The notes: generated by a model from the letters alone, not told the origin. A stretch of DNA of 64,000 nt from an uncultured delta proteobacterium (GCA_963727485.1 CAVSGM010000003.1:608001-672000); one strand, 5' to 3'. Numbered from the stretch's first letter, positions 19,805-53,300 are shown. Numbers and translations are program-made.

Positions 19805-20104
19805 ATGCGCGACCTCCTGAAGCTCTATCCCCGCCACCACCCCGAGTCCGCCGGCCGTGTCCTCGACGGCGAGGCGGTGGTGGTGACCCCGGCGGACAGC
19901 CGGATGCACACCCTCAACGAGGTGGGCACCTTCCTCTGGGATTGGGCGGACGGGGCGCGGAGCGTGGCCGAGCTCGCCGAGGCGGTGGAGACCCGGTTCG
20001 AGGTCGACGCCCAGACGGCCCGGAGCGACACCGCGCAGTTCGTCGCCGACCTGGAGGCCCTGGGCATCCTGGTCCTCGACGAGGCGCCGGGGAGCCCGGG
20101 GTGA
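19805..20104 (+). CDS. Stand-alone PqqD family protein (RiPP recognition element, RRE)
   Basis: 99 aa. RVLDGEAVVV..., HTLNEVGTFLWDWADGARSVAELAEAVETRFEVDAQTARSDTAQFVADLEALGIL is the classic PqqD/RRE pattern (LNxxGxxxW...DG...L). Confidence 0.92.
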   Translation: MRDLLKLYPRHHPESAGRVLDGEAVVVTPADSRMHTLNEVGTFLWDWADGARSVAELAEAVETRFEVDAQTARSDTAQFVADLEALGILVLDEAPGSPG

Positions 20105-20141
20105 CGGGGCTCACGGTGGCCGAACGCCCGGGATGGTTGTC

Positions 20142-20150
20142 TGGTAGGCT
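20142..20150 (+). promoter_or_regulatory. Putative extended -10 element (TGnTAGGCT) upstream of the giant lipoprotein
   Basis: TG-G-TAGGCT at 20142-20150, about 100 nt before ATG 20247. Confidence 0.3.
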
Positions 20151-20246
20151 GAACGCGGGGCCGGCGCCTGGGCTCGGAGGCGCACGGCTCGACCCGAGAC
20201 GGCGGACGGTTGGGGTGTCCAAGGCCGCTGGATGCACGGAGGGGCG

Positions 20247-23200
20247 ATGAGAAGCACCTGGAAGCACGCGGCTGCGGGCCTGGCCCTGGTGACGCTGGCC
20301 GTCACCGGTGGTTGCGACTGTGGCAAACAGACGAACACCTGCAGCCGGCCCACGGTGACCATCACCTCGCCGAAGGACGGGACCACCCTCTCGGCGGCCG
20401 ACGACAGCAACGCCAGCCTCGCCGGGGTGCAGGTGACCGTGAAGGCCACCACCGACACCTGCGTCCAGAACGACTCCACCGCCACCCTGGTGGTGAACGA
20501 CGACACCAACCTCGCCCGGTCGGCCTTCGTGACCGCCGGGAAGGTGAGCTTCCAGAACGTCACCCTGGTGCCCGCCGACGCCGCCGGCGACCTCACGATC
20601 ACCGTGAGCATCCGGGACAAGGGCACCGGGCTGGTGGCCAAGAGCACGGTGAACCTGGTGCTCCAGACCTCCGGGGGCCCGGTGTGCCGGTTCACGGCGC
20701 CCACCGACGGCCAGACCCTCGGCGCCTCCGACGACGCCGACGCCAACACCCCCGGCTTCCAGCACGACGTCACCGTCACCTGCGACACGGATCTCACCGG
20801 GACCCCGGCGAACCTCACCATCGACGGGGCGCCGGTGCCCTCGGCGATCTTCGCCGGGCAGACCGTGACCTTCCCCAAGGAGACCTTCTCCGAGGGGCAG
20901 AACGTCCTCTCGGCCTCGGTGGCCACCGGCGCCGGCACCTGGAACGGGAAGGCGAACGTCACCGTCGACACCCCCGCCTGCGAGATCCACCTCTCGCCCG
21001 CCGGGGCCAAGGTCTTCAACCTCGACGGCGACCCGCCCCGGCTCCCCGGGCGCCAGGCCATCGCCGACGCCGACGCCACCGCGCCGGGGATCCAGGCGGC
21101 GTTCACCGCCACCAGCCCCGACTGCCAGGGGAGCGACGCGGTGCTGGTGGTCGACGGCACCGACGCCAAGACGGTGAGCGTGACCGGGACGTCGGTGGAC
21201 TTCGGCACCGTGGATCTCCCGGATGGCACCGACGTCCCGGTGTGGATCGACGTGCGCCAGGCCACCGGGGGCACCGGGCCCACGGGTCGCTCGGTGACCC
21301 AGAGCTTCGTGGTCTCCTCGGCCCGGCCGTCGCCGGTGGTGACCTTCCCCGCCCAGAACGGGACCCTCGGGCCCGCCGCCGACACCGACGGCGATCCCTC
21401 CAACGGGATCCAGGCCGACCTCTTGGTCGAGGCGCCGAACCTCGCGGCGAACAGCAGCCAGACCGCAGGCGATGGCGCCCTCATCGAGGCGACCCTCACC
21501 GAGGTGTCCACGGGCACCCAGACCACCCTCACCTGCCTGGTGGGCGTGGACCACTGCGTCGACGCCACCGACCCCAACGTCTACCACCTGCCCCTGGACC
21601 TCGCGACCGACGGAGCCTGGAAGGTCACGGTGAAGGTGACGGGGCCCGCGGGGAACGTGGGCACCGCCGGCCCGGTGGACTTCGCCTCGAACGCCAACGC
21701 GGTGGGGGTCTCCATCGACTCGCCGGCGGCGGGGGCGAGCGTGAGCCTGGCCACCGCCGGGGTCACCGGGACCACGGTGCCGGTGCAGGTCTCCGCCCAG
21801 GGCGTGGCCGCGGGGGCGCCGGTGACGGTGCTGTGCACCGGGGCCACGGCGCCGGCCCAGGGCACCCTCGACGCCAGCGGCACCGCCACGGTCCCGGTGG
21901 ACTTCGGCAGCGCGCCCTGTGACGGGGTGCAGACCAGCTGCACCGCCACGGTGACCACCGGGGGCTCGGACCTCACCAGCGCCAAGGTCGACTTCCACGT
22001 GGACCTCACGGCGCCGACGCTGGCCATCGTGGCGCCGGCGGACGGGGCCACGGTCTTCGACTCCTCGGTCTCGGTGGAGGTGGTCAGCCAGTGCCTCGAG
22101 GACGGGCAGACCATCACCGTGACCAGCGACGGCGGCGCCACCGGGAGCGCCAAGGCGTCGGGGAACGCCGCGGTGGTGCCCCTGACCCTCCCCAGCGGCA
22201 CCCACGTGCTCACCGCCGCCGCCACCGACCAGGCGGGCAACCCGGCGACCAGCTCGCCTTCGAGCCTCACCGTCGACGCCAACCCCCCGAGCGTGGTCTT
22301 CGTGGCGCCCACCGACGCCCTGGTGCTCACCGGCGCCGACGACGCCGACACCTCGAAGGCCGGGTTCCAGCACGACGTGACCGTCCAGGTGGCCAACAAG
22401 CCCGCGGGCACCGAGGTGGTGCTCCTGGTGGGCTACGACGACGGGGGCCAGACCGTGTGGCGCGCGCCCCTGGGGCCGGTGGCCACCTCGGGGGCCAGCC
22501 TCAAGGCGACCTTCCCGGCGGTGGATCTCCCGGAGGGGGCGTTCCAGCTCGAGGCGGTGGCGACGGGTCCCTCGGGGCTCAAGGGCCAGAAGACCATCGG
22601 GCTCACGGTGAACACGGGGCTGCCCAGCTGCAACATCGTGGCGCCCACCGACGGCGCCTCCCTGGGGCTCCCCGCCGACGCCAACGCCAATCCCTCGGAC
22701 GGGATCCAGACCGACGTCCGGGTGCGGACCTCGGCGGCCGACGGCAAGACGGTCTCCCTGACCCTGGTCGACGGGACGGGGACCAGCCACACCCTCACCG
22801 GGACGGTGAGCGGCGGCGAGGCGGTGTTCTCCTCGGTGTCGTTCACCACGGCGACCGGGTCGCAGACCGGGCAGAACACCCTGGACGCGGTGTGTGACGC
22901 CGGGAGCGCCAGCCCCGGCCACGCCCTGACCAACCAGGTCGACGTGGACCTCGAGCCGCCGGCGGCGGCGCTGGTGACCCCGGTGGACGGCACGGTGTTC
23001 AACGCCGCCAGCCTCGACCAGAGCGCCGACCCCGGGTTCCAGGTGGACGTGGTGGCCAAGGCCACCAACCCCTCCAGTGGCCAGAGCGTGAAGGTGGGCG
23101 CCACCGGGACGTTGTCGGTGACCTGCGGGGGCCAGGCGCAGGCGCCGCAGACCACGACCTTCGACACCTGGCAGGGCCAGATCGAGGCGCGGTTCAAGGC

Positions 23201-26200
23201 GACCCTGGTGGACCAGCAGAGCTGCACCTTGAGCTTCGTGGCCACGGACCTCGCCGGCAACAAGAGCGCCCCGGCGACGGCGACGGTGGCGGTGGACCGG
23301 GTGCCGCCGACGGTGGCGATCTCGGCGCCGGCGGACGGGACCCTCTTCGGGGCGGTGGACGACGCCTCGGCGGGGACCGCCGGGTTCCAGCACGACGTGA
23401 CGGTGACCTACTCGGGGGTGGAGAGCGGTCAGCCGGTGCACCTGTTCTTCACCCGGCTCTCCGCCGGGGGCACTGCGGTGGAGGATCCCGGCAGCCCGCA
23501 CACGGTGGGGTCGGGGTCGCTGACCGGCTACACCTTCCCGGCGGTCACCTACACGCCGAACACCGATGACCAGGTGACGATCCAGGTGACGGTGACCGAC
23601 GCCGCCGGGAACCAGGCCTCGGCGTCGGTGGGGGTCACGGTGGACATGACGGCGCCGCAGGTGGCCATCACCCGGCCCACCAGCGGGGGCGCGTGCATCA
23701 ACGTGTTCAACGACTTCGACTTCTCCAAGCCGGGGATCCAGACCCAGGTGAACGTCGACACCTCGGGGGTGGCCAACGGGCTGCCGCTGACCTTGTGCAG
23801 CACCACGGGGACGGGGACGGCCTGCGGGACCAGCGGCTTCTTCCAGGTGGCCCAGAGCACGGTGAGCGGGAACACGGTGTTCTTCCAGTCCATCGACCTC
23901 ACCGAGGGCAGCCAGCAGCTCGAGGCCGAGAGCGCCGACCAGGCCGGCAACACCGCGGCCTCGGCGCCGGTGACGGTGTGCGCCGACTCCATTCCCCCGG
24001 TGGTCACGGCGCTGACGGTGCCCGCGGACACCAACGGGGACGGGTCGGTGAGCGCCGCCGAGCTCCAGGCGGCCGGCGGCCAGCTCTGCTTCGACGCCGC
24101 GGTGACCGGGGCCGACGGGCGGACCCTGACGATCTACACGAACAACCCGGCGGCCAAGACGGTGGTGGGCACGGGGACGGTGTCGGGTGGCGCGGTGCAG
24201 GTGTGCGGGAGCGTGCCCGAGGGCGGGCAGCAGATCACCGCCTATGTCACCGACGTCAACGGCAACCCCAACCTCAACGCCTCGAACCCGACCATCACCG
24301 ATCCGGCGGCGGTGATCCCGCTGGTGAAGGACACGGTGCCGCCGACCCTCACGGTGACGGCGCCCAGCGGCACGGTGCTCAACGGGACCACGGACGGGAA
24401 CACGGCGACGCCCGCGTGGGACGGGGCGTTCACGGTCGCGAGTGACGCCGAGGGCCAGACGGTCACCTTCACGGTGGACGGGGCCGCGGCGGGCACGGCG
24501 GTGGTCACGGGGGGCACGGCGAGCGTGAACGTGTCGCTCGGGAACAACACCAGCCACACCCTGGCGGCGGTGGTCACGGACGCGGCGGGGAACCAGAGCA
24601 CGGTGTCCCAGACGGTGCAGGTGGACACCACGCCGCCGACGGTGACGATCACCTCGCCGACGGGCGGGAGCTTCGTGAACACCAACTCGGTGGCGGTGAC
24701 GGTGAACGTGACCGGCTCCTCGGCGGGGAGCCCGCTGACGATCACGCGGACGGACACCTCGACCCAGCTCGCCAGCACCACGGTGGCGGCGACCCAGCCG
24801 CAGACGGTGACGGTGAACATCGCCGACGGGACGCCCACCCTGGTGGCCACGGCCCAGGACTCGGCGGGCAACGTCGGGACCTCGAGCCCGGTGAGCTTCA
24901 CGGTGAAGACCACCGGCTGCTCCATCGTGTTCGTGACGCCGTCGACGGCGACGGTCACCTGGAACGCCTCGGACGACGCCGACCCGGCGACGCCGGGCCT
25001 CCAGACGACCCTGGTCGCCGAGACCAGCAACTGCCAGGGCCGGACCATCACCCTCCTGAAGAACGGCACCCAGGTGGCGGCGACCGCCTCGGCCGCGGGC
25101 ACCGGCCAGGCCTCGTTCCCGGTGACCCTGAACGACGGCGAGACCGGGACCTTCACCGCCCAGATGACCGACCAGGCGAACAACGTCACCTCGTCGAGCT
25201 TCACCTTCACGGTGGACATCACCGCGCCGACCCTGGCGTGGACCGCGCCGACGGCCACCAAGCTCGCCTACGTGACGGCCACCAACCCCACGGTGGGCAC
25301 GGTGGTGAACGGGTACCTGCGCATCGCCGACACCGGCGCCGCGCCGGGGGCCCAGGCGTCGTTGTCCTTCGACGCGACGGGCGCGCAGGGTGGGACCCTG
25401 GTGATCACCCTGGGCGCCACCACGGTCTACTCGGCCTCGGTGACCGCCGACCCCCAGACCGTGACGCAGACGGTGACCCTGCCCCAGGACGCGGCGGGGA
25501 CCCTCACCGCGACGCTGACCGACGCCGCCGGGAACGCGGTCAGCGTGACCCGCGACGTCCTGGTGGACGTGGTGGCGCCGGCCGCCCCGACGGTGACGAC
25601 GTCACTGGTGAACGACCGGACGGCGACGGTGGGCGTGACCTGGACCGCGGTCGGCGACGACGGGGCCGCCACCGGCACCCCGGCGGGCTACGAGGTCCGC
25701 TGGGCTACGTCCCCGATCACCGACGACGCCACGTTCTCCACCGCGACCCTGGCGACCACCGCGGCGCCCACGGCCACGTCGTACTCCCTGACGCCGCTGC
25801 CGCCGCTGAACACCTACTCGGTGGCGGTGCGGGCCAAGGACGAGCTGGACAACATGTCCCCGGTGACCGTGGGGACCGACGTGGCCAGCCAGGCGAACAT
25901 GTGGACCGAGCAGCTGATCAATGGCGAAGGCGGGTACTTTGCCTTCGGCATGACAAGTCGAGGTGCAGACCTCAACCATGACGGCTACGACGACCTTGTC
26001 GTCGGTGCCTACAACTACACGGTCTCCAATCCGTCGTCTGGAACGGGGGCGGGCCGTGGCGCCGTCTACATCGTCTACGGGGGACCGGATCCGACCAATC
26101 TCACCGTGCAGAAGATCGTCGGCCAGACCGACGGTGAGAACTTCGGATACCGGATCGACACCGGCGACGTGAACGGCGACGGCATCCCCGATCTCATCGT

Positions 26201-27194
26201 TGGTGGCGCCGGCTACAACTCGGGCCAGGGTCGCGCCTTCATCTACTTCGGCGTGGACAGCACCAAGGGCGTGACCCAGATCAATTCCGCCAGTGCCATC
26301 GAGCTCCGCGGCACCAACGCCACCACCGGACAGTTCGGGCGGTCGTTCGCGGTCGTCGGTGACGTGAACGGCGATGGCATCCAGGACCTGGCGGTATCCG
26401 CCCGGCAGGAGGGGCCGAACAAGGAAGGCAAGGTCTACGTCTTCTACGGGCGCTCGGCGGCCACATGGCAGTCGGACGCCACGGCGAAGGGCTACCTGGA
26501 CACCAGCGATGCCAACCTGAGCTTCATCGGGACCACCACGGACGGCAACTTCGGCTACCGCTTCGGCCTCGCCGGCATTGGGGACATCGACGGTGACGGC
26601 AAGAGCGACCTGGTAATTCCGCAGTACTACACGGACCCGTCCAGCGTCGCGAGCAACAGCCTCTACGTGTTCCGCAGCTCGGACTTCCTGACCGCGGCCC
26701 AACCGGTGCCGGCGAGCGCGGCATTCCAGCATCTGGTGCCGACCGGATCGAGTCGCATCGGGTTCGATGGCCTGACCCTCTCACCGGACGGTACCTCCAA
26801 CTACCTCGTCGAGACGGACATCGCGGCAGCCACGGCGCGGCTCTACTCCATCGGGAGCAGTGGTCTGGCGACGCCTCCCGCCGAGTCCCTCGCCGCGCCG
26901 CCAGTCACGACCAACTACGGATACAGCGTCGCAGCCGGGGACTTGAACGGAGACGGCCGAACCGACCTCGTCCTGGGGAGCAATGGCTCGGCTACCAACA
27001 AGGTCTACCTTTATTTCAATCGCGGACAGAGCCCATTCTTCGGCAACGGTGCTCCTGATACAACTCTCCAGCGTACTGGCTTCTTCGGGACCAGCGTCTG
27101 GGTGGGTGACATCAACGGGGACGGCAAGCTGGACCTTGCAGCGGGCGCCGTGAACGACAATGGGGGCTTGGGCTACGTTCATATCTGGTACTAG
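20247..27194 (+). CDS. Giant (~2315 aa) surface lipoprotein: many Ig-like repeats, EF-hand-like loop, FN3 domain, C-terminal FG-GAP (integrin-alpha-like) beta-propeller
   Basis: Lipoprotein signal ...LAVTGGC-DC. Thr/Val-rich beta repeats (ATDxAGN; VDxTPPTVTITSP). DTNGDGSVSAAEL at ~24027. FN3-like WTAVGDDG...YEVRW...YSVAVRAKDE. Several GDxNGDGxxDLxVG and GAVYIVYG repeats. GGAGG RBS before ATG 20247. Confidence 0.9.
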   Translation: MRSTWKHAAAGLALVTLAVTGGCDCGKQTNTCSRPTVTITSPKDGTTLSAADDSNASLAGVQVTVKATTDTCVQNDSTATLVVNDDTNLARSAFVTAGKVSFQNVTLVPADAAGDLTITVSIRDKGTGLVAKSTVNLVLQTSGGPVCRFTAPTDGQTLGASDDADANTPGFQHDVTVTCDTDLTGTPANLTIDGAPVPSAIFAGQTVTFPKETFSEGQNVLSASVATGAGTWNGKANVTVDTPACEIHLSPAGAKVFNLDGDPPRLPGRQAIADADATAPGIQAAFTATSPDCQGSDAVLVVDGTDAKTVSVTGTSVDFGTVDLPDGTDVPVWIDVRQATGGTGPTGRSVTQSFVVSSARPSPVVTFPAQNGTLGPAADTDGDPSNGIQADLLVEAPNLAANSSQTAGDGALIEATLTEVSTGTQTTLTCLVGVDHCVDATDPNVYHLPLDLATDGAWKVTVKVTGPAGNVGTAGPVDFASNANAVGVSIDSPAAGASVSLATAGVTGTTVPVQVSAQGVAAGAPVTVLCTGATAPAQGTLDASGTATVPVDFGSAPCDGVQTSCTATVTTGGSDLTSAKVDFHVDLTAPTLAIVAPADGATVFDSSVSVEVVSQCLEDGQTITVTSDGGATGSAKASGNAAVVPLTLPSGTHVLTAAATDQAGNPATSSPSSLTVDANPPSVVFVAPTDALVLTGADDADTSKAGFQHDVTVQVANKPAGTEVVLLVGYDDGGQTVWRAPLGPVATSGASLKATFPAVDLPEGAFQLEAVATGPSGLKGQKTIGLTVNTGLPSCNIVAPTDGASLGLPADANANPSDGIQTDVRVRTSAADGKTVSLTLVDGTGTSHTLTGTVSGGEAVFSSVSFTTATGSQTGQNTLDAVCDAGSASPGHALTNQVDVDLEPPAAALVTPVDGTVFNAASLDQSADPGFQVDVVAKATNPSSGQSVKVGATGTLSVTCGGQAQAPQTTTFDTWQGQIEARFKATLVDQQSCTLSFVATDLAGNKSAPATATVAVDRVPPTVAISAPADGTLFGAVDDASAGTAGFQHDVTVTYSGVESGQPVHLFFTRLSAGGTAVEDPGSPHTVGSGSLTGYTFPAVTYTPNTDDQVTIQVTVTDAAGNQASASVGVTVDMTAPQVAITRPTSGGACINVFNDFDFSKPGIQTQVNVDTSGVANGLPLTLCSTTGTGTACGTSGFFQVAQSTVSGNTVFFQSIDLTEGSQQLEAESADQAGNTAASAPVTVCADSIPPVVTALTVPADTNGDGSVSAAELQAAGGQLCFDAAVTGADGRTLTIYTNNPAAKTVVGTGTVSGGAVQVCGSVPEGGQQITAYVTDVNGNPNLNASNPTITDPAAVIPLVKDTVPPTLTVTAPSGTVLNGTTDGNTATPAWDGAFTVASDAEGQTVTFTVDGAAAGTAVVTGGTASVNVSLGNNTSHTLAAVVTDAAGNQSTVSQTVQVDTTPPTVTITSPTGGSFVNTNSVAVTVNVTGSSAGSPLTITRTDTSTQLASTTVAATQPQTVTVNIADGTPTLVATAQDSAGNVGTSSPVSFTVKTTGCSIVFVTPSTATVTWNASDDADPATPGLQTTLVAETSNCQGRTITLLKNGTQVAATASAAGTGQASFPVTLNDGETGTFTAQMTDQANNVTSSSFTFTVDITAPTLAWTAPTATKLAYVTATNPTVGTVVNGYLRIADTGAAPGAQASLSFDATGAQGGTLVITLGATTVYSASVTADPQTVTQTVTLPQDAAGTLTATLTDAAGNAVSVTRDVLVDVVAPAAPTVTTSLVNDRTATVGVTWTAVGDDGAATGTPAGYEVRWATSPITDDATFSTATLATTAAPTATSYSLTPLPPLNTYSVAVRAKDELDNMSPVTVGTDVASQANMWTEQLINGEGGYFAFGMTSRGADLNHDGYDDLVVGAYNYTVSNPSSGTGAGRGAVYIVYGGPDPTNLTVQKIVGQTDGENFGYRIDTGDVNGDGIPDLIVGGAGYNSGQGRAFIYFGVDSTKGVTQINSASAIELRGTNATTGQFGRSFAVVGDVNGDGIQDLAVSARQEGPNKEGKVYVFYGRSAATWQSDATAKGYLDTSDANLSFIGTTTDGNFGYRFGLAGIGDIDGDGKSDLVIPQYYTDPSSVASNSLYVFRSSDFLTAAQPVPASAAFQHLVPTGSSRIGFDGLTLSPDGTSNYLVETDIAAATARLYSIGSSGLATPPAESLAAPPVTTNYGYSVAAGDLNGDGRTDLVLGSNGSATNKVYLYFNRGQSPFFGNGAPDTTLQRTGFFGTSVWVGDINGDGKLDLAAGAVNDNGGLGYVHIWY

Positions 27195-27202
27195 GTGAGA
27201 AC

Positions 27203-27364
27203 ATGGAAGAGTCGCGCAACAAGGAGCAGCGTCGGCGGTACGCGCCTCCGGCGGTCTCCACCGAGAGCCTGCCGCTGCTGCCGCTCGTGGAGTTGACCTC
27301 GGGCGGCACGGGCATCGGTGGCAACAGTCTGCCGAAGAAGCCAGGGCAACCACCCCCGCAGTAA
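27203..27364 (+). CDS. Putative RiPP precursor peptide, 53 aa (not in the ORF track): MEESRNKEQRRRYAPPAVSTESLPLLPLVELTSGGTGIGGNSLPKKPGQPPPQ
   Basis: ATG 8 nt after the giant gene's stop, with an AGGTGAG RBS-like site. Basic stretch plus YxxP motif and LxxLT-S|G, like RRE-binding lasso-type leaders. Gly/Ser/Thr/Lys/Pro-rich putative core. Flanked by PqqD and kinase genes. Confidence 0.75.
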   Translation: MEESRNKEQRRRYAPPAVSTESLPLLPLVELTSGGTGIGGNSLPKKPGQPPPQ

Positions 27365-27413
27365 CGCTGGGTGACGTCCGCGAGGCTCGCTACGTGTCTC
27401 CCGATCTTGAGCC

Positions 27414-28070
27414 ATGGACTGCCGCCGGTCCCTGGGGGCTCGTGCGGGTCGAGCGCGGTCGCCCAGACGTGGTGGACTGCGGATCGCAGTAGGCACCGCC
27501 AGACCAGTTGGAGTGGAGGTTTCTGGCGAACGGTACTTGGTGGCGCCCTGTCCCGATGGGGTCATGGGGCTGGTCCAACGCGCCATCCTGGCCGCGCATG
27601 TTGAATCGAGCGGGGGCTTTGTACTTCACGCCTCGGCGGTCGTCTCCGAGGGCGTTGACGCAACCCTCTTTCTGGGGCGGAGCGGGTCGGGCAAGACCAC
27701 GGTCTCCACCCAGGCGAAGGGCGCCCTTCTTGGGGACGACACCGTCGTCATCTGGCGCGGCGAGAGGGGCCTGGAAGTGGTTTCCACACCCTTTGTGAGC
27801 GATGGCGGGCGCTTGGCGGAGACACGCAGCGGGACGCCGCGCGCCGTGTGTACGCTTCGGTGGGGCACTTCGCCTCGGCTAGATCGCCTTGACGACCGCG
27901 TCGCGTTGCGGGCGCTGGTGGAGAGCATCTATCGTCCACTCGGTCCGACCCTCAACCTGGCGGTCGCCAAGAGCCTCTTGGATCTCGTCGGCATGACCAG
28001 GGCGTACCGGCTCACCTTCCCTCGCGAGTACCGCTTCGATCCATCGATTTTCGAGACCGAGGCAGGGTGA
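27414..28070 (+). CDS. HPr kinase-related P-loop protein (HprK-related/ScmC-like)
   Basis: LHASAV, Walker A GRSGSGKTT, LLGDD and STPF, the HprK-like signature. N-terminus uncertain (may begin at GTG 27371 with a frameshift). Confidence 0.8.
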   Translation: MDCRRSLGARAGRARSPRRGGLRIAVGTARPVGVEVSGERYLVAPCPDGVMGLVQRAILAAHVESSGGFVLHASAVVSEGVDATLFLGRSGSGKTTVSTQAKGALLGDDTVVIWRGERGLEVVSTPFVSDGGRLAETRSGTPRAVCTLRWGTSPRLDRLDDRVALRALVESIYRPLGPTLNLAVAKSLLDLVGMTRAYRLTFPREYRFDPSIFETEAG

Positions 28071-28081
28071 ACGTCGCTCCT

Positions 28082-29176
28082 CTAGAGAAGCAAGGGGAAC
28101 GGGATGGGTGCGCTGAGGGCTGACTCACCTGCGGTCTCGCGCGCCCAGCCCAGGGCGTCGTCAATCTCCCCGCCATGCCGCGACCGAAGCTCGGCCAGCT
28201 CCGTGGCCCTCTCCGTGCGTCCGTAGGTCCGTCCGGACTTGGCATGTCTCCCGAGCAGAGGGGCCAATCGCGTCTCCGCATCCGGGATCGCCTCCAGGCC
28301 GAAGAAGCTGGCCGCGGCGTCGACCGCGGCCCCGACGTCCTGTACCAACCGCTCGGTGGACAGCGTCCGTAGCCGGTCCGCTCCGAGCTTCGCCGAGGCA
28401 TCCCGAATCGCAGACATGTGACTGGTCCAGAGCGCGACCGCGATGCGGCCTGGAGGCATCTGGGGATGGGGCATCTCGGCGCCAGGGACCAGCGGCAAGA
28501 ACCCGCGCTCGAACCACGTGGCCCGTTGTCGGAGCCACTCACGGCGCTCCTCCGACTTGATGGCGGACGCGATGAAGGTGGCGGGGGAGGTGAAGAGGAA
28601 GATGCCCCGGCTCTCGGGCCGGGCACGGAAGAGCTGTTCCAGCCCGAGCGTCGCCGAATCGGACGCCTTGACGATGGTCGCTACCTGGCCGGTTCGGTGG
28701 CGCGCCAGGAGATGGAGAACCAGCCGCAGGGCCTCGATGGCCTCTTGGCGGCGGGTCGGCTCGCTCGCCGTCTTGGCGAGGGCCTTCACGGCGCCGTGGA
28801 GCCCCTCCGGTTCTCGGCGAGCCAGCGAGCGCGTTGTTGCCGCGAGGGCTCGAGACATCAGCGTGGACCCGCAAAACGCGTGGTGAAGGATGAAGTGCAG
28901 GGGGTCCGAAGGGGGCCTCGCCTGTGCGAATCGTCTGAGGAGGTAGGGGAGCGGTAGAAGGATCGCGTCTGGCGTCGCCTCTCGAATGGCCACCACGCCA
29001 TGGAAGGCCAGGGCGGCATGACGCGCCCAGTCTGCCGGCACGAAACCCATCGTGCCCTCCTCGAGGTCGACCGTGACCGGCTCGAGATCGGGCGACTCGA
29101 AGAGGTGAGCGAGCTGGGCGACCAACCGCTGCGCAGCTTCGGGGTCGTTGATCGCTGGACGGCCAGGCTTCTCCAC
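28082..29176 (-). CDS. Sulfotransferase-like P-loop protein
   Basis: FILHHAFCGSTLMSRAL (5'-PAPS-binding-like RxGST/CGST loop), REP, IVKxS and IFLFTSPATFIAS (LxRxP-like 3'-phosphate motif, Arg absent). Start inferred at GTG 29176. Confidence 0.65.
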   Translation of the reverse strand: MEKPGRPAINDPEAAQRLVAQLAHLFESPDLEPVTVDLEEGTMGFVPADWARHAALAFHGVVAIREATPDAILLPLPYLLRRFAQARPPSDPLHFILHHAFCGSTLMSRALAATTRSLARREPEGLHGAVKALAKTASEPTRRQEAIEALRLVLHLLARHRTGQVATIVKASDSATLGLEQLFRARPESRGIFLFTSPATFIASAIKSEERREWLRQRATWFERGFLPLVPGAEMPHPQMPPGRIAVALWTSHMSAIRDASAKLGADRLRTLSTERLVQDVGAAVDAAASFFGLEAIPDAETRLAPLLGRHAKSGRTYGRTERATELAELRSRHGGEIDDALGWARETAGESALSAPIPFPLLL

Positions 29177-29252
29177 GGCGCAAGTGTAGGCGAGCACCCT
29201 CGGCGCCACCAATCGCTGGCTTGGCGTGCTAGCCTCGGGGCCAGGCAACTCC

Positions 29253-30081
29253 ATGGAGTCACACCTGGAAGGACTGTCGGTTGGCCGCTCCCTTTGGCCA
29301 GTCGCTGCGGGCGGTTCCCGGCTGCGGGCGGTCGGGCAATCCCCCAAGGTGGGCGAGGTGGTGGTCTATCGGCTGGGGCAGGGGCTGCGAGCACACCGGG
29401 TGCTGGCGGTGTCACAGGGGAGCCTCCTGGTCCGTGGTGACAACCCCATGGTGCCGCTTGAGCGCGTCTCGGCGGACCAGGTCGTCGGGGTCTGGCAGCC
29501 AGAGGGTCTCCGATCCCGCTTGACCCTCGGGGCCGTCACCGGCGGCGCCATCGGCACCCTGGCGCTGGCGGCCAGCCGCGTGGCGCGTGTCCGCGGCGCG
29601 CGGGCAATGGCGAACCTGGTGCCGAGGGCGGCCCCCGGCGGGCTCCACGTGGTGGTCGCCACCGAGGACCCCAGCCAGCTGGCCGTGAGCCTCGGTGAGG
29701 TGGGGCTGCTGCGTCCGTTTCGAACGACTGTCGAGGTTCAGTTCGCGTTGCTGACCGGGACGGGCTTCGCGGTGCTGGCTCGGGCCGAGCAGGGCACGGT
29801 AGCGGCACTCCGCGCGCTGCCTCAGGCAGATGCGCTGCTCCTGGGTATCACCGTGAAGCGCCGCTACCGCGGCCAGGGGCTCGGACGCCGGCTCCTCGAC
29901 GCCGCGCTCGCCGAGGCCCGCCGCCGCGAGAGCCCGCAGCCTCCTCGCCGACATCCGCCGCGACAACACCGCCAGCCTCCGCCTCTTCCAGGGCGCCGGG
30001 TTCACGCGCGTCGCCGAGGCCGTCCTGGTGGCCCCGGGCGACGGCGTGCTCTTCGACCGGTACGCTCTCGACCTCGGATGA
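29253..30081 (+). CDS. S24/S26-family (signal-peptidase-like) peptidase fused to a GNAT acetyltransferase (apparent frameshift near 29930)
   Basis: GRSLWP (GxSMxP-like catalytic Ser), GEVVVY, AHRV and RGDN...V...QVVG. Then GNAT motif A VKRRYRGQGLGRRLL, continuing in another frame as DNTASLRLFQGAGF...DLG* (TGA 30079-30081). TG-C-TAGCCT extended -10 at 29227-29235. Confidence 0.72.
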
Positions 30082-30151
30082 CGAGGCGACCGGCGGCCCG
30101 GCGCGCACCACCACCCGGCACCCGGCCCGCACCTGGGTTACAGTGGTCCCC

Positions 30152-31123
30152 GTGCAACCCGCCGCCCAGCCCCAGTCCTCCGATCCGGTCCTCTTCGCCC
30201 GGCGGATGCGCGAGAACATCGCCCGCGCCGTGGTGGGCAAGGACGACGCGGTGGACACCTGCCTCGCCGCCCTGGTGGCCGGGGGGCACATCCTCCTGGA
30301 GGACGTGCCCGGGGTCGGGAAGACCACCCTGGGGCGGGCCGTCGCCGCGAGCCTCGGGGTCAGCTTCGCCCGGGTGCAGTTCACCAGCGACCTGCTCCCG
30401 AGCGACATCGTGGGCAGCGCCATCCCCGACCGGCGGGCCGGGGCGACCCCGGGGCAGCTGGTGTTCCAACAGGGGCCGATCTTCGCCAACGTGGTCCTCG
30501 CCGATGAGCTCAACCGCACCACGCCCCGCACCCAGTCGAGCCTCCTGGAGGCCATGGCCGACGGGAAGGTCACCGTCGACGGGGTGACCCACCCGCTGCC
30601 GTCGCCGTTCCTGGTCATCGCCACCCAGAACCCCCTGGAGCACCACGGGACCTACCCGCTCCCCGAGTCGCAGCTCGACCGGTTCGCCGTGCGCCTGACC
30701 CTCGGCTACCCGGCGCAGGCCGAGGAGCGGCGGCTGCTCCTCGGGCGGGGGCTCGAGGAGCCGGTGGACGCCCTCACCCAGGTGGCCTCCGCCGACGACG
30801 TGGTGCGCCTCCAGGAGGCCGCCACCTCGGTGCGCGTCGATCCCAGCGTCGCCGACTACGCGCTCGCCGTCGTCGCCGCCACCCGGCAGAGCGATCAGCT
30901 CGCCGCCGGCGCCTCCACCCGCGCCGCCCTCGGCCTCATGGCCCTGGCGCGGGCCCGGGCGCTGCTCCAGGGACGCGACTTCGTCAGCCCCGACGACGTC
31001 AAGCGCCTCGCCCGGCCGGCCCTGGCCCACCGCCTGGTGCCCCTCTCCGGCGTCGATCCCAGCCGCGCCGAGACCGCCGCCATCCTCGACGAGATCCTCG
31101 GGCGCGTCCCCGTCCCCGAGTGA
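30152..31123 (+). CDS. moxR: MoxR family AAA+ ATPase
   Basis: GHILLEDVPGVGKTT, RVQFTSDLLPSDI, DELNRTTPRTQSSLLEAM and GTYPLPESQLDRF. Confidence 0.95.
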   Translation: MQPAAQPQSSDPVLFARRMRENIARAVVGKDDAVDTCLAALVAGGHILLEDVPGVGKTTLGRAVAASLGVSFARVQFTSDLLPSDIVGSAIPDRRAGATPGQLVFQQGPIFANVVLADELNRTTPRTQSSLLEAMADGKVTVDGVTHPLPSPFLVIATQNPLEHHGTYPLPESQLDRFAVRLTLGYPAQAEERRLLLGRGLEEPVDALTQVASADDVVRLQEAATSVRVDPSVADYALAVVAATRQSDQLAAGASTRAALGLMALARARALLQGRDFVSPDDVKRLARPALAHRLVPLSGVDPSRAETAAILDEILGRVPVPE

Positions 31124-32112
31124 GAAGCCGGACCGTGGAGGCGACGCGGGACCGAGGCCGGCGGGGCGGCGCCACCGGGCGACAGACGCGACGGCGCTTC
31201 GGCCGCATGCCCCGTACCCTCAAGGTGACCCGCGAGGGCCGGTACTACCTCGCCATCACCCTGGGCATCGGCTTCGCCGCCACCAACACCGGCAACAACC
31301 TGCTCTTCCTCACCCTGGGGATGCTGCTGGCGCTGATCATCCTCTCGGGGCTCCTCTCCGAGGCGGCGCTCCGGCGCCTCGAGGTCGTGCGGGTGCTGCC
31401 TCACGAGGCCCGGGCCGGCGAGCCCGTGCTCGCGGGGATCCGCATCGCCAACGGAAACCGGATGCTCCCCGCCATCGGCCTCGCCGTGGACGAGGTGGAC
31501 CCGGAGAACACCGAGAGCCACCCCGGCCGCCTCTTCCGGATCGCCGCCGGGGGCAACGCCCGCATCGACCTGCGCCTCGTGCCCACCCGCCGCGGTGAGG
31601 TCCACCTCCGCGCCGTCCGCGTCACCACCGCCTACCCCTTCGGGATCTTCGCCAAGACCCGGGAGTTTCCCCTGCCCGGGCGCTTCGTCGCCTGGCCCGG
31701 GCGCACCGAGGTCCACGTCGCCGGCGCCCGCGAGGGCCGGGGCGACGCCGGCCTCGCCCGGGTCTCCCGCGGCGGCGGCGAGGACTTCCACGGCCTCCGG
31801 GAGTTCCGTGAGGGCGACGAGGCCCGGCACATCCACTGGCGCAGCTCCCTTCGCCAGGAGCAGCTCATGGTCGCCGAGCGCGAGGCCCTCCAGGGACGCC
31901 GGGTCACCGTGACCCTGACCCCGGCCGCCGGCGCCGCCTTCGAGCAGGCCGTCCGCGAGGCCGCCGCCCGCGCCGAGGTCCACCTGGCCCGGGGCGACGA
32001 GGTGGGCCTCGAGGGCCCGAACCTCCACGTCCCCTTCGGCGCCGGGGCCGGCCACCGCCGCCGGCTCCTCACCGATCTCGCCCTGGTCGAGGCCCCGGGG
32101 GCGGCGCCATGA
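31120..32112 (+). CDS. DUF58 domain-containing protein
   Basis: AATNTGNNLL, YPFGIF and DFHGLREFREGDEARHIHWRSS. Standard position after moxR. Confidence 0.9.
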   Translation: MRSRTVEATRDRGRRGGATGRQTRRRFGRMPRTLKVTREGRYYLAITLGIGFAATNTGNNLLFLTLGMLLALIILSGLLSEAALRRLEVVRVLPHEARAGEPVLAGIRIANGNRMLPAIGLAVDEVDPENTESHPGRLFRIAAGGNARIDLRLVPTRRGEVHLRAVRVTTAYPFGIFAKTREFPLPGRFVAWPGRTEVHVAGAREGRGDAGLARVSRGGGEDFHGLREFREGDEARHIHWRSSLRQEQLMVAEREALQGRRVTVTLTPAAGAAFEQAVREAAARAEVHLARGDEVGLEGPNLHVPFGAGAGHRRRLLTDLALVEAPGAAP

Positions 32113-34163
32113 GCTTCGGCCACGCCCAGCGCCTCGCCACCCTCCTCACCGCCGTGGCCGCGTTCTCCGCCATCGCCGTGGGCGGCGCCATGAACCCCGT
32201 GTTCGTGGCGCTCTGGTACCTGGGCGCAGTCGTCGCCTTCTTCCTCGCCGACGACGCCATCGAGGGGAAGTGGGTGATCACCGCGGCGCTCGTCGCCGTC
32301 CCGGTGATGGTGGCCCTGGCCCTGCGCGGCCTCGACCCCATCCTCGCCACCGCCTACTTCGCCTCGGTGCTCCTCCTCGCCCGGGTCCTCGCCCGCGAGG
32401 GCGCCGGGGCCCACGCCCAGATCCACCTGCTGGCGGTGCTGGTCCTCGCCGGCGGCGCCGCCCTCTCCGGCGACGTCACCTACCTGCTGGCCTTCGTCGC
32501 CTTCCTCTTCGCCGCCACCTGGGCCCTGCTCCTCACCCACCTGCGCCGCGAGGTCGACCCCGCCACCCTCGACCTCCCGGTCCGCGAGGTGGTCGGCCCC
32601 GGCCTCGCCACCGGGGTGCTCGTCCTCACCGCCGTGGCCCTGGTGGCCACCGCCGTGACCTTCGTCGTCTTCCCCCGGACCCCCTTCGGCCTGGGGTTCC
32701 GGCGCCCCATCGGCGGGGGCACCGCCGGCCTCTCCAATCAGGTGAGCCTCTCGGGCTTCGGCCGGATCAACGGCGACACCCGGGTGGTCCTCCGGGTGCG
32801 CACCCCCGACCGGGCGCCGCGCTCGCGCCTCGACCTCTACTGGCGCGCCCAGGTCTTCGACCGCTACGACGGCCACGGCTGGACCGGCCACGCGCGCCCC
32901 CGCCCCGGCGCCCGCCTCCAGCTCGGGGTGCGGCTCCGGAGCCCGGTCTCGAAGAAGCTGGTCAAGCTCCGGGTGCAGCTCGTCGAGCCCCTCGGCGTCG
33001 ACGTCCTCCCCGTCCCCGACGACACCGTCTACGTCCGGTTTCGGGGCATGGACGGCCGCGGCCACCTCGGCCTCGCCCGCCGCGCCGCCCACCTCGTGGT
33101 GCGGACCGACGGCCGCCTCACGCCCCCCATCCGCTACCGGGTCTTCCTCGATCCCGCCCTCGAGGTCACCGACCCCACCCCGCCCACCGCCGCCGATCTC
33201 GCCCTGCCGCCCCAGGACCCGCGGACCGTGGCGCTGGCCGCCCGCCTGAAACAGGAGGCCGGCGACGGCGACGCCGCCCTGGCCCGCCATGTCGCCGGGT
33301 GGCTCTCGAGCACCTTCGGCTACACCACCGAGCTCCCCGGGGCCAACCCCTCCCTGGCGCACTTCCTCTTCGATCGGAAGCGCGGCCACTGCGAGTACTT
33401 CGCCACCGCCATGGCCGTGCTCCTGCGCCTGGAGCACGTCCCCGCCCGGGTGGCCACCGGCTTCTACGGCGCCAGCTGGTCCGACGCCGGGGGCTACTAC
33501 GTGGTGCGCCGGGGGAGCGCCCACGCCTGGGTGGAGGCGTGGATGCCCGGGCGGGGCTGGGTGCGCTTCGATCCCACCCCCGCCGCCGACCGCGGCGCGC
33601 AAAACGGCGACGACCTCTGGACCCGGCTCTCGGACACCTGGGACGCGGTGCAGTCCGCCTGGTCCAACTTCGTCCTCGACTACGGGTTGGGCAACCAGGT
33701 GCAGATGTTCCTCTCCGCCGCCAAGGCCCTCCGCCGCTTCAGCCGCGCCTTCTCCGGGCACGACCGGGGCGGGGTGCTCACCCGGGGCCTCCTGGCCCTG
33801 GTGCTGGTGGGCGCCTTGTTCCTGGGGATCCTCGCCTGGCGCCGCCGGCGCCCCCAGGCCTGGCGGCGCCTCACCACCGCCGATCGCCGACCGCCCCGGG
33901 TGCGCCGGGCCGTGGCCGTGGGACGGCTCTTGCGCCGGGTCCTCGCCGAGCCCGGCCCCAGGCCCGCCGCGACCCCCGAGGAGCTCCTCGCCGACCTGGC
34001 GACCCGGCGCGGCGGCGACGACGGGCTCACCCACCGGGCGGCGATCCTGGTGGCGCGCTACCAGCAGGTGCGCTTCGGGGGCCGGGGCCTGGGGCCCGCC
34101 GAGGCGAGGCGCCTGAAGGCCAAGGCCCGGGCCCTGGGGCGGGACCTGCGCCGACCTGGGTGA
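32109..34163 (+). CDS. Membrane transglutaminase-like protein (TgpA/DUF3488 family)
   Basis: N-terminal TM helices, YWRAQVFDRYDG, GHCEYFATAM (Cys), AHAWVE (His) and FDPTP (Asp). Confidence 0.92.
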   Translation: MSFGHAQRLATLLTAVAAFSAIAVGGAMNPVFVALWYLGAVVAFFLADDAIEGKWVITAALVAVPVMVALALRGLDPILATAYFASVLLLARVLAREGAGAHAQIHLLAVLVLAGGAALSGDVTYLLAFVAFLFAATWALLLTHLRREVDPATLDLPVREVVGPGLATGVLVLTAVALVATAVTFVVFPRTPFGLGFRRPIGGGTAGLSNQVSLSGFGRINGDTRVVLRVRTPDRAPRSRLDLYWRAQVFDRYDGHGWTGHARPRPGARLQLGVRLRSPVSKKLVKLRVQLVEPLGVDVLPVPDDTVYVRFRGMDGRGHLGLARRAAHLVVRTDGRLTPPIRYRVFLDPALEVTDPTPPTAADLALPPQDPRTVALAARLKQEAGDGDAALARHVAGWLSSTFGYTTELPGANPSLAHFLFDRKRGHCEYFATAMAVLLRLEHVPARVATGFYGASWSDAGGYYVVRRGSAHAWVEAWMPGRGWVRFDPTPAADRGAQNGDDLWTRLSDTWDAVQSAWSNFVLDYGLGNQVQMFLSAAKALRRFSRAFSGHDRGGVLTRGLLALVLVGALFLGILAWRRRRPQAWRRLTTADRRPPRVRRAVAVGRLLRRVLAEPGPRPAATPEELLADLATRRGGDDGLTHRAAILVARYQQVRFGGRGLGPAEARRLKAKARALGRDLRRPG

Positions 34164-50624: not shown

Positions 50625-51029
50625 ATGCTCCCGGGGCACGGGTTCCGGGTGCTCGCGGCGCTGACCGCGCCCCTGGCCGTCCTGGGGGTGCTCCTCGCCG
50701 GCGCGGTCGTCGCCGCTTTCGGCCGGGCCGGCCTCTTCGGCTGGTCCTTCGTGGCGGTGTGGATGGCGCCGCCGGTGGCGCTGCGGACCGGGGCCCTCCT
50801 CCTCGGCGCCTGGGCCGTGGCCCCGATCCTCCACGCCGACGCCCGGTGGCTGCGCCAGCACGCGGGCTACGTCGTGGGCCTGCTCTTCTCGGAGCTCCTG
50901 CTCCACGCGAGCGGCCGGGCGGGCATGGACATCGACCGCCCCAACGTCATGAACGTGCTCTTCCACTGGAGCGCGGTGTACCTCGGCGCCATCGTCGGCG
51001 GGGTCATGTGGTGGCGTCGTCGCCACTGA
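50625..51029 (+). CDS. Hypothetical membrane protein
   Basis: About 4 hydrophobic segments, host-like codon usage. Start uncertain. Confidence 0.45.
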   Translation: MLPGHGFRVLAALTAPLAVLGVLLAGAVVAAFGRAGLFGWSFVAVWMAPPVALRTGALLLGAWAVAPILHADARWLRQHAGYVVGLLFSELLLHASGRAGMDIDRPNVMNVLFHWSAVYLGAIVGGVMWWRRRH

Positions 51030-52326
51030 GGCCGGCGAGGATCTCCCGCGCCCGCTCCACCCGGAAGCACTTCTCGCGCTGGAGCTCGGAAGCGACCTGG
51101 AGGACCTGGTCGCCCTCGGCGCCGGCCTCGATGGCCACGGTCCGGGCGTGGAGCGCCATGTGGCCCCGCTGGATCCCGTCGGTGGCCAGCGCCTTGAGGG
51201 CGGCGAGGTTGCTGGCGAGGCCCACCGCGGCGCCGAGGCCGGCGAGGTCCCGGCCGCCTGTGACCTGGCTCATCTTCAGGGCCAGGCGCACCCCGGGGTG
51301 GGCCCGGGCGGCGCCGCCGACGATGCCCACGGCCAGCGGCAGCTCGGCGACGCCCTCGAGGAAGCCGTCGGCGCCGGCGCGCCACACCGCCAGGGGCCCG
51401 TACTGCCCCGAGCGCGCGGCGTAGGCGTGGGCGGCGGCCTCGGCGGCGCGCCAGTCCTGACCGGTGGCCAGCAGCACCGCGTCGAGGCCGTTCATGAAGC
51501 CCTTGTTGTGGGTCACCGCCCGGTAGGGGTCGACCTCGGCGAAGTGGCTGGCGGCGACGATGCGGTCCACCACCACGCCGCCGTCGGGCCAGCGGCTGTC
51601 GCGCAGGGACTCGGGGGCCACCCGGCAGGTCACCCGCACCAGGCGCTTGTCGGCGTAGTTGGAGAGGATCCGCAGGCCCGCCTCGCCGCCGGTGATGGCC
51701 TCGAGGTGGGGGGCCAGGCCCTCGGCCACGGTGTTGAGGAGGTTGGCGCCCATGGCGTCGAGGCAGTCGACGAGGACGTGGACGCAGAGGGTCCCGGTCC
51801 GGGCGCCCTCGGCAGGGGGGAGCACCCGGGTCTCGATCCCGCGGGTCCCGCCCCCGCGGCGGACCATGTTGGGGATGAAGGCGTTGGCCTCCTCCACCAG
51901 GGTCTCGGCCTCGGCGGCGACCTTCCGGGCCGCGGCCTCGGGGTCGAGGAGGCCGACGATCTGCACCTGCGCGGCCATCACCGACTCGGTGGTCTCGACC
52001 TCGAAGCCCCCGGCGTCGCGCACCAGCCGGGCGGCATTCGACGCCGCGGCGACCACGCTGGGCTCCTCCACCGCCATCGGGGCCACCCGCTCGGTGCCGT
52101 CGATGAGGAGGTTGAGGCACAGGCCGAGCGGCAGGCCGTGGACCCCGATGACGTTCTCGCTCATCCCGTCGGCGATGGTGAGGTCGAAGCCCCCTGCGGC
52201 GCCGGGGCCGGAGAGGGTGGCGGCCTCCTCGGTGGTGAGCCAGCCCGCGCTCACCAGGCGCTCGAGGCGCTCGGCCAGCGGGAGCTTGTAGAACCCGGGA
52301 AGACGTGCGGTTCGCTGCTTGGTCAT
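51004..52326 (-). CDS. mvaA: Hydroxymethylglutaryl-CoA reductase, class II
   Basis: ENVIG, PMAVEEPSVVAAAS, DAMGAN, ILSN, THNKGFMNG, TGQDWRA and GIQRGHMALH. Confidence 0.95.
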   Translation of the reverse strand: MTKQRTARLPGFYKLPLAERLERLVSAGWLTTEEAATLSGPGAAGGFDLTIADGMSENVIGVHGLPLGLCLNLLIDGTERVAPMAVEEPSVVAAASNAARLVRDAGGFEVETTESVMAAQVQIVGLLDPEAAARKVAAEAETLVEEANAFIPNMVRRGGGTRGIETRVLPPAEGARTGTLCVHVLVDCLDAMGANLLNTVAEGLAPHLEAITGGEAGLRILSNYADKRLVRVTCRVAPESLRDSRWPDGGVVVDRIVAASHFAEVDPYRAVTHNKGFMNGLDAVLLATGQDWRAAEAAAHAYAARSGQYGPLAVWRAGADGFLEGVAELPLAVGIVGGAARAHPGVRLALKMSQVTGGRDLAGLGAAVGLASNLAALKALATDGIQRGHMALHARTVAIEAGAEGDQVLQVASELQREKCFRVERAREILAGLSGDDATT

Positions 52327-52336
52327 GACGCTGCCT

Positions 52337-53300
52337 TCACGCGGCGCCGGTGAGACCGGCGGAGTCGAGGTGGAGGTCGAGGACCTCGAGGCCCTTGGCC
52401 TCGAGGGCCGACCGGACGCGCGGTCGGTCGGCGGGGTCGACGTCGGGGACGAAGACCAGGAGGAGGTCGCCGGCGCCGGCGCCCGAGGGCTTCACCGCGC
52501 CGTCGAACCCGGCGGCGGCGTCCCGGGCGGCGGCCAGCGCCTCCCGGCCGGCACCGGCACCGAGCTCGGCGAGGTCGGCGATCCGGGCGAGGAGGGCGTC
52601 GGCGTCGCGTACGGCCCGGGCGACGCCCAGGCCGCTGCGCAGCCGCGCGGAGAGGACGCTGCCGGCGGCGGCGGCGTCCTCGAGGACGGCGCGGCCTTCG
52701 GGGCCCTCGAAGCGGGCGAGGGCCCGGGCGGTGGACACCGGGGTGCCCCCGGCGACCACCAGGGGCAGCGAGGTCTCGGGGAGCGCGATGCCCTCGGCCA
52801 CCAGGGCGTCGTCGCCCCGGCCCGGGTCCCGGAAGCGCACCACGCCCCCGAGGACGGCGGTGGCCACGTCGGCGCCGCTCCCGCCTCGGGCGGCGCGGTG
52901 GGCGGCGCGGGCGGCGAGGAGGACGCGGCGGCGGACCTCGGGGTCGTCGAGGTCGTGGCCGGCGGCGGCGAACACGCTCCCGGTGACACACGCGATCCAG
53001 GCGGCGCTGGAGCCGAGGCCGAGCTTCTTGTCTCCGGCGTGGAGGGCGGCGGTGTCGACCACCGGTACCCCCGGGGGGAGCGACGCGGGGTCGGCCCCGG
53101 CGGCGGCACGTCGCGGCGTCGAAGAACGCCCGGGCCTCGGGGGTGGCCTCGGCGTCCGAGGCGCCGGTGGCGACCCCGTGGCGGTCGACGGCCATCACCA
53201 GGCCGGTGCCCCCGGCGAGGAGGCCGTACTCCCCGGAGAGGACCACCTTCCCCGGGGCGCGCACCCGGGGCCAGGGCGCGGCGTGGGTGGCGACGGCCAT
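52337..53300 (-). CDS. Phosphomevalonate kinase-like GHMP kinase (apparent frameshift at ~53060-53110)
   Basis: APGKVVLSGEY in one frame. KLGLGSSAA, GSGADVA and KPSGAGAGD in the next. Position inside the MVA operon. Confidence 0.8.

Follow-up and report, generated by a model that had tools for sequence, protein, structure and literature searches.

A 64,000-nucleotide stretch of DNA from an uncultured delta proteobacterium (GCA_963727485.1, CAVSGM010000003.1:608001-672000; the whole stretch is hereafter called the window, and positions are counted from its first letter) carries a cassette in which genes that probably process a small, ribosomally made peptide stand around the gene for a giant lipoprotein with a predicted integrin-like tip. 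The order of genes - a stand-alone recognition element (RRE) for peptides made on ribosomes and modified after translation (RiPPs), a giant Ig/FG-GAP lipoprotein, a peptide with a YxxP leader, an HprK-like kinase and a signal peptidase I, in some cases fused to a GNAT domain - is conserved across Myxococcota, the phylum to which we assign the group by way of homologous peptides annotated in Stigmatella and Hyalangium. The cassette is a real and widespread variant of the chemistry of linear polyphosphorylated peptides (LPPs), tied throughout to a polymorphic surface protein of predicted integrin-like fold by a link that is unexplained; the peptide would be modified, exported and bound. The chemistry itself resembles that of LPPs, and the novelty lies in the constant association with an integrin-alpha-like propeller.

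Distribution and composition of the cassette

Searches with the RRE and the kinase gave 89 gene maps including the window, 40 of which hold a giant gene with this tip. A [YW]xxP peptide is encoded directly behind the giant in all 40, and the kinase is present in 40 of 40, a count that is not independent because most loci were fetched via the kinase. The strict leader pattern follows 39 of the 40 giant genes. Of the remaining genes of 250-690 aa in these loci it follows only 10 of 534, a count without the 43 genes at the edges of loci, for which no score was possible. To avoid circularity, we also searched with the tip alone. The tip domain is found in 60 of 251 genomes of the phylum, in single copy each, across seven families of two classes; this search found none in family f3 (0/37) or genus g13 (0/18), and only one in genus g21 (1/28). 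Twenty-two matches lay outside the alignment, and 21 of these tip-first loci were examined: 19 have the peptide (15 in strict form), one of the two misses being cut by a contig end and the other having a broken giant gene. The RRE lies upstream in 38 of the 40 first-set loci and 17 of the 21 tip-first loci, all six misses being cut at contig ends. The kinase is adjacent in ten tip-first loci and was not found in eight with 1.9-6.6 kb of downstream DNA, where the peptide is still present; RRE, giant and peptide thus form an invariant trio. Separately, the kinase gene in genus g44 lies on contigs other than those with RRE, giant and peptide (L054-L056, L058, L059 and L064 versus L125-L130). Many loci are positioned behind etfB-etfA, a sign that the cassette is old and has been passed on mostly vertically, with losses. 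We found no description of the cassette in the literature, most subscription journals lying outside the search.

A first-pass annotation of the window had reported six genes and proposed a check of their co-occurrence in further Myxococcota. All six exist, at about the positions it gave, they co-occur widely, and the giant gene belongs to the system as a constant member. The features are as follows, the giant gene being entered in two parts:

19805..20104, plus strand: stand-alone RRE (PqqD fold), 99 aa (PF05402, E 3.6e-18, as had been annotated)
20247..25940, plus strand: giant lipoprotein, residues ~1-1898: signal peptide plus Cys, then an Ig-like stalk in which DxD...GxQ recurs, then fn3 (Pfam Big_13 and fn3; motifs)
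25940..27194, plus strand: tip, a C-terminal integrin-alpha-like FG-GAP beta-propeller in the same open reading frame (predicted structure, fold comparison, drop in GC at fourfold sites)
27203..27364, plus strand: 53-aa precursor peptide that starts rich in K/R and has a YxxPxV leader, Thr32/Ser33 and a core free of Cys and rich in Gly/Pro (open reading frame, motif counts, family profile E 9e-6)
27394..28070, plus strand: HprK/PEPCK-type P-loop kinase (His, Walker A and DD motifs; frame interrupted near 27476 in the assembly)
28082..29197, minus strand, start uncertain (29176 or 29197): sulfotransferase-fold protein in the slot between kinase and peptidase (PF13469, E 0.0019; Atlas 0.98 to sulfotransferase clusters)
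29226..30081, plus strand, start 29226 or 29253: fusion of GNAT with a signal peptidase I domain of archaeal/ER type (Ser, His) (TIGR02228, E 0.005, below cut-off; SEC11A, 2e-9; GNAT PF00583)

The 2315-aa reading frame at 20247-27194 does encode the Ig-repeat/FN3/FG-GAP lipoprotein that had been read from it: it has a TGGC resembling a lipobox, Ig repeats of the Big_13 type, an fn3 domain and FG-GAP matches, six in number, and a Pfam scan of the protein found no signalling domain. The model of the tip (the last 424 residues; pLDDT 91.2, pTM 0.92) superimposes on integrin alphaM with Z 34.2 and a root-mean-square deviation of 2.8 A over 342 aligned residues, an alignment of a predicted structure that spans the whole tip, and the tip sequence matches integrin alpha propellers at E 2e-29. 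Unlike integrin alpha, the bacterial protein is a lipoprotein with the propeller at its C-terminus and has no beta-subunit gene in its cassette, and the shared fold shows no function. The border between fn3 and propeller is also a compositional one in the window: GC at fourfold sites is 0.99 in the stalk and drops from 1.00 to 0.77 at ~25940, and third-position GC stays at ~0.8 from the tip on through the peptidase gene. All 40 first-set loci, and 16 of 18 further ones, have lower fourfold GC in the tip than in the stalk; among long control genes the corresponding difference is seen in 26 of 84 from this genome and in 20 of 34 from the loci.

The 53-aa frame at 27203-27364 has a K/R-rich start and, as the YxxP motif attributed to it, YAPPAV. 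It begins 8 bases past the stop codon of the giant, and across loci the peptide start lies between -26 and +28 bases relative to that codon; a read-through fusion of giant and peptide is ruled out because the intergenic gap is not constant in frame. The leaders follow a common scheme: a K/R-rich part leads to [YW]xxPx[VLI]x[ST] and, at Tyr+15/16, to two hydrophobic residues, with Y or W, P, and V/L/I at their positions in 39 of 40 loci. At Tyr+19, 26 of 40 have Ser or Thr, the corresponding residues in the window being Thr32/Ser33. The leader is conserved and the core hypervariable, with at least two Cys in 32 of 40 cores. Families f1, f7 and f12 include a type that is free of Cys and ends in a sequence resembling GP[FYE]R[DE]xP, and the window core, which has neither Cys nor aromatic residue and no Asp or Glu after precursor residue 30, looks like a degenerate member of it. 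That the peptide frame is conserved is borne out by four close relatives, any two of which differ by 4-6 synonymous and 1-4 non-synonymous codons and have an identical core. In a clade without adjacent peptidase (L030, L063, L125, L126, L128, L129, L132), the leader ends in a lipobox-like LLxC without a long hydrophobic region.

Comparison with known peptide systems

LPPs (lppAKBSDN of Paenibacillus alginolyticus), in which a single core Ser is polyphosphorylated, were described by Popov et al. 2026 (PMC13381572). RRE-dependent cleavage by an archaeal-type signal peptidase and HprK-type phosphorylation of a linear YxxP peptide are demonstrated there in Bacillota, to which LPPs are termed restricted, and their biological role is left open; the survey table has four Myxococcota rows for the signal peptidase (clusters 3, 11, 11 and 14), none scored as LPP. 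The chemistry, which had been called undescribed, is therefore not so, since it resembles what is shown there. Shared with LPPs are a discrete RRE, the YxxPxV motif (YAPPAV in the window), an HprK-like kinase, a putative signal peptidase I of archaeal type, the lack of a cyclase and a hypervariable core. Unlike the LPP clusters, the myxobacterial cassette has no NTP (nucleoside triphosphate) transferase and no MsbA exporter, its GNAT is often fused to the peptidase, its cores are often Cys-rich, and it always stands behind a giant FG-GAP lipoprotein. Nor do its leaders match the full consensus YxxPxVLxHQxIxFETxxS, having S/T-E-x-L/I...L-F/L in place of HQxIxFET. Because NTP transferase, exporter and full leader consensus all fail, we do not class the cassette as an LPP member.

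The RRE family profile matches PbaB1 (9x90, lasso), TbiB1, TfuB1 and LppB (9x8z, LPP; 3e-8). The kinase profile matches PEPCK and HprK structures, and its His, Walker A and DD motifs are retained across loci. For the peptidase profile SEC11 is nearest, by the SEC11A match listed above.

Lasso peptides have an Asp/Glu acceptor at core position 7-9. A lasso system is ruled out here by the absence of that residue type after precursor residue 30 and by the failure to find the lasso B2 peptidase (PF13471) in a 93%-complete genome, where neither YcaO nor C39 was found either; the earlier statement that B2 peptidase and YcaO are lacking thus holds for the genome so far as it is complete. Asparagine-synthase matches do exist in the genome, none of them near an RRE, and the cassette has no cyclase. 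The sole genome match to the PF14907 NTP transferase is ~450 kb away on contig C3, in a polysaccharide locus (G000:C3, ~170000-192000) that has Asn-synthase-like, NTP-transferase and sulfate-activation-like genes, many broken by apparent frameshifts. What the cassette has in common with paeninodin-type lasso clusters is a YxxP-type leader, a discrete RRE and an HprK-like kinase, the lasso side being taken from PMC13381572.

The HPr-rel-A (TIGR04352/04353), SynChlorMet (TIGR04248) and GeoRSP (TIGR04302) cassettes similarly combine a PqqD-like protein with an HprK-related kinase, sometimes with a radical SAM (rSAM)/SPASM protein, and no full-text description of them was found in the literature. 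Against every curated cut-off, however, the RRE and the related kinase fall short, the window RRE reaching 27 of 35, 30.6 of 100 and 31.8 of 100 bits and the related kinase 23 of 200.

Two further systems are analogies, with no homology claimed. In the Bacillus ComQXPA pherotypes (PMC13432125), polymorphic peptide, modifier and receptor part evolve as one unit; in the giant protein, Pfam finds no signalling domain. In the same phylum, myxobacteria recognise kin through TraA, a polymorphic surface receptor; unlike the system proposed here, its described binding partner is TraA, with no processed peptide.

Tip and peptide as possible partners

How might the parts work together? By analogy with LPPs (PMC13381572), the RRE would bind the YxxP leader, the kinase would modify a Ser or Thr some 19-20 residues past the Tyr (Thr32/Ser33 here), and the signal-peptidase-I-type enzyme would cut off the leader just before that residue. 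The fused GNAT could then cap the new N-terminus by acetylation. Such acetylation had been proposed for the window, and the fusion with the peptidase speaks for it; as the GNAT is present in 21 of 40 loci, the step would be optional. The final step, for which we look to evolutionary patterns, would be an interaction of peptide and tip that specifies self or partner recognition at the cell surface. Our preferred account, held at a little under even confidence, is that the mature peptide and the tip of the giant lipoprotein, with its predicted integrin-like fold, are partners matched allele by allele.

This account draws on the invariant trio of RRE, giant and peptide, on the conserved leader and hypervariable core, on the retained kinase motifs and SEC11-like peptidase, on the lower GC of the tip and on the miaA-linked cassette described below. 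It also draws on 13 loci of four genera. The stalk tree tracks genus, while the tip tree unites L030 and L123 (genus g24), L063 and L132 (g47) and L125 (g44) with a bootstrap of 100, and these five share a common CTG-x3-C...CC core type. Their tips reach a cross-genus similarity of 0.54-0.61 to the nearest, as against 0.27-0.38 typical of the clade. In approximately unbiased (AU) tests, genus g47 as a clade is rejected for the tips (p 0.002) and the five-locus group is rejected for the stalks (p 6e-6); a partial Mantel test of core against tip given stalk yields r 0.42 (p 0.003), the clade for both kinds of test having been chosen after two of the five loci stood out in an earlier tree. Tip and peptide travel together in this clade, by exchange or by shared retention. 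This pattern suggests that the peptide may act as a ligand, the support being evolutionary.

Several observations weigh against the partnership of tip and peptide. Across 31 loci, core similarity shows no relation to tip similarity when stalk, kinase and RRE are held (r -0.10, p 0.83); nine of the 40 loci were left out (four near-duplicates, one cut and four lacking a called component), and most cores are unalignable at this depth. The pairs in the Mantel test are not independent, and, as tip and peptide lie side by side on the DNA, a single recombination tract could carry both without interaction, so that linkage alone could suffice. The long-gene control for the GC drop under-samples Ig-repeat genes because its filter excluded the window's own giant gene. 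The largest gap is the route of export: the peptide has no membrane-spanning stretch, and no transporter or exporter was recognised in the gene maps of the cassette, judged by length and N-terminus without a profile search. A neighbouring EamA gene was rejected as exporter, being kept in lineages without the tip (13/13 in g13, 12/12 in f3), and it was not found in the genomes of this family (0/5). In the window the peptidase has Ser and His with a Glu near the third catalytic position, which is Asp in the Ser/His/Asp set of LPPs, and lacks the N-terminal helix that in LppS contacts the RRE (that of genome G001 is equally short); Cys replaces the catalytic Ser in five loci (L024, L029, L060, L061, L073), and the enzyme was not found in six of 40 (34 positive at a loose threshold). 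Prediction of a complex of tip and precursor (the L032 pair, alignments A7 and A8) returned a score of 0.02, the mark being 0.32, which speaks neither for the partnership nor against it.

A fuller version of the partnership, which we rate as less likely than not, is RiPP-keyed adhesion, in which a giant stalked integrin-alpha-like receptor would meet a phosphorylated, often disulfide-looped peptide ligand, with matched alleles swapped between genera, as a second, peptide-based code for self-recognition beside TraA. If peptide and propeller do bind allele-specifically, social bacteria would have a recognition system of a new kind, in which an integrin-like receptor of bacterial origin meets a modified ligand made on ribosomes. 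In any case, LPP-type machinery is fixed to one surface protein across two Myxococcota classes, which supplies a concrete candidate partner, and the idea is directly testable because matching precursors are annotated, as hypothetical proteins, in Stigmatella aurantiaca, S. erecta and Hyalangium spp.

Alternatively, the product may be an LPP-like linear phosphopeptide that acts alone, as a signal or matrix component, and is merely co-regulated with the adhesin, its joint inheritance reflecting linkage. We judge this rather unlikely, if a serious contender. The set of RRE, kinase and signal peptidase is the same as in LPPs, and the 31-locus test was negative; moreover, related cassettes adjoin another large protein, C25 gingipain-like (in Myxococcota, Acidobacteriota and Anaerolineales), and the partner is therefore exchangeable. 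An independent phosphopeptide is nonetheless difficult to square with a peptide that remains beside the tip where kinase and peptidase are not adjacent, or with the five same-core loci whose tips are more alike across genera.

An improbable alternative is that the peptide serves the giant as a dedicated accessory within the envelope or cell - as a cap, a folding aid or a switch for its own tip - with no intercellular signal. The position of its start around the stop codon of the giant is as in coupled translation, no exporter was recognised, and tip co-inheritance fits a self-pairing accessory equally well. A peptide from a cytoplasmic kinase and peptidase would still need a route to the exported domain, though, and the replacement of tip and core alleles may be easier to explain by selection for different specificities.

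It is very unlikely that the tailoring genes are decaying in this genome and the adhesin works by itself. Two frameshifts in the window, the short peptidase N-terminus and the degenerate Cys-free core motif could be so read, but contigs of near-identical strains lack both frameshifts, other loci of the assembly are fragmented, and the peptidase of G001 is just as short. Least probable of all is a cross-linked RiPP whose defining modification is made by an rSAM enzyme, in cis in some loci (five of 40, including G002 and G003) and in trans here by a fusion on contig C2 that has a counterpart in G002, given that 35 of 40 loci have no such gene and the window core offers neither Cys nor aromatic residue.

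Assembly, the variable slot and related loci

Two genes of the cassette are interrupted in the assembly of the window, the kinase frame near 27476 and the peptidase-GNAT frame near 29930. A single contig of run X2 (depth 3.3) has one additional base behind 27476, which makes the kinase frame continuous, and contigs of runs X3 and X6 (both from study P1) have one base fewer at 29929-29931, which does the same for the peptidase-GNAT frame; each correction is supported by one or two low-depth contigs. Both frameshifts are likely assembly errors, because the contigs of near-identical strains are intact and further loci of the same assembly are fragmented. The kinase had been placed at 27414-28070: it is indeed a P-loop kinase, but 27414 lies in the frame downstream of the break and is probably an artefact, the corrected start being a GTG at 27394 (225 aa). 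Likewise, the peptidase-GNAT fusion annotated at 29253-30081 is continuous in the X3 and X6 contigs but is not one reading frame in the window, where the last GNAT motif is in another frame.

The slot between kinase and peptidase is variable. In the window it holds the minus-strand gene that had been called sulfotransferase-like; the protein does have a sulfotransferase fold, the gene ends at 28082, and the family motif H-x-A-F-C-G-S-T-L is intact. The family has 1311 representatives at E<=0.001, yet among 61 loci the gene occurs in the window only, and sulfation, proposed earlier as part of the system, is at most a local extra. Two of 13 scanned relatives are fused to a PF14907 NTP transferase, the type found in LPP and lasso clusters, a weak link between the family and peptide tailoring. 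Elsewhere the slot has rSAM genes in five of 40 loci, among them the two nearest relatives, G002 and G003, and in G003 an M1-peptidase-like lipoprotein.

The window itself has no rSAM gene, as had been stated; the statement does not extend to those five loci, where one lies behind the kinase, or to the rest of the genome, in which a search for a trans-acting cyclase or rSAM, as had been suggested, turned up the rSAM/SPASM-RRE-HprK fusion on C2. This fusion (L041:11000-13303, at G000:C2 ~1832800-1835300; also L043) is frameshifted in the assembly and has no precursor identified; it looks like a separate system because it has its own RRE and kinase domains. Nearby on C2 (L041:8554-8910), a stand-alone RRE is preceded by RRRFL and a hydrophobic stretch, twin-arginine-like; export would be unusual for an RRE.

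Two further types of cassette are marked by a kinase of this family. One is miaA-linked (L075-L082, L040), found in genera g13 and g21, which are mostly without the giant, and runs from peptidase to RRE, a 170-aa lipoprotein, a PQQ-type propeller protein of ~1020 aa, peptide and kinase, so that the peptide again lies right behind a large signal-peptide-bearing beta-propeller protein. Its peptides read YxxPAILWEQxFVALAQxS and mostly have two Cys, with Ser at Tyr+18 in seven of eight printed, as in LPPs. The other type comprises RRE/HprK cassettes, mostly with rSAM, beside C25 gingipain-like proteins in the three groups named above (L039, L071, L084, L085, L088, L090, L104, L105). As all three cassette types adjoin one, a large exported partner is a recurring feature.

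Rfam gave no match, and promoter and terminator scans were at chance level. The cassette is flanked by a metallo-hydrolase on one side and, on the other, by MoxR ATPase, DUF58 and transglutaminase-like genes (30143-34163), which stand 3' of the cassette in G003 as well and look like an ordinary neighbouring module. Further along, at 51004-56366, a run of genes judged by their N-termini resembles the mevalonate pathway.

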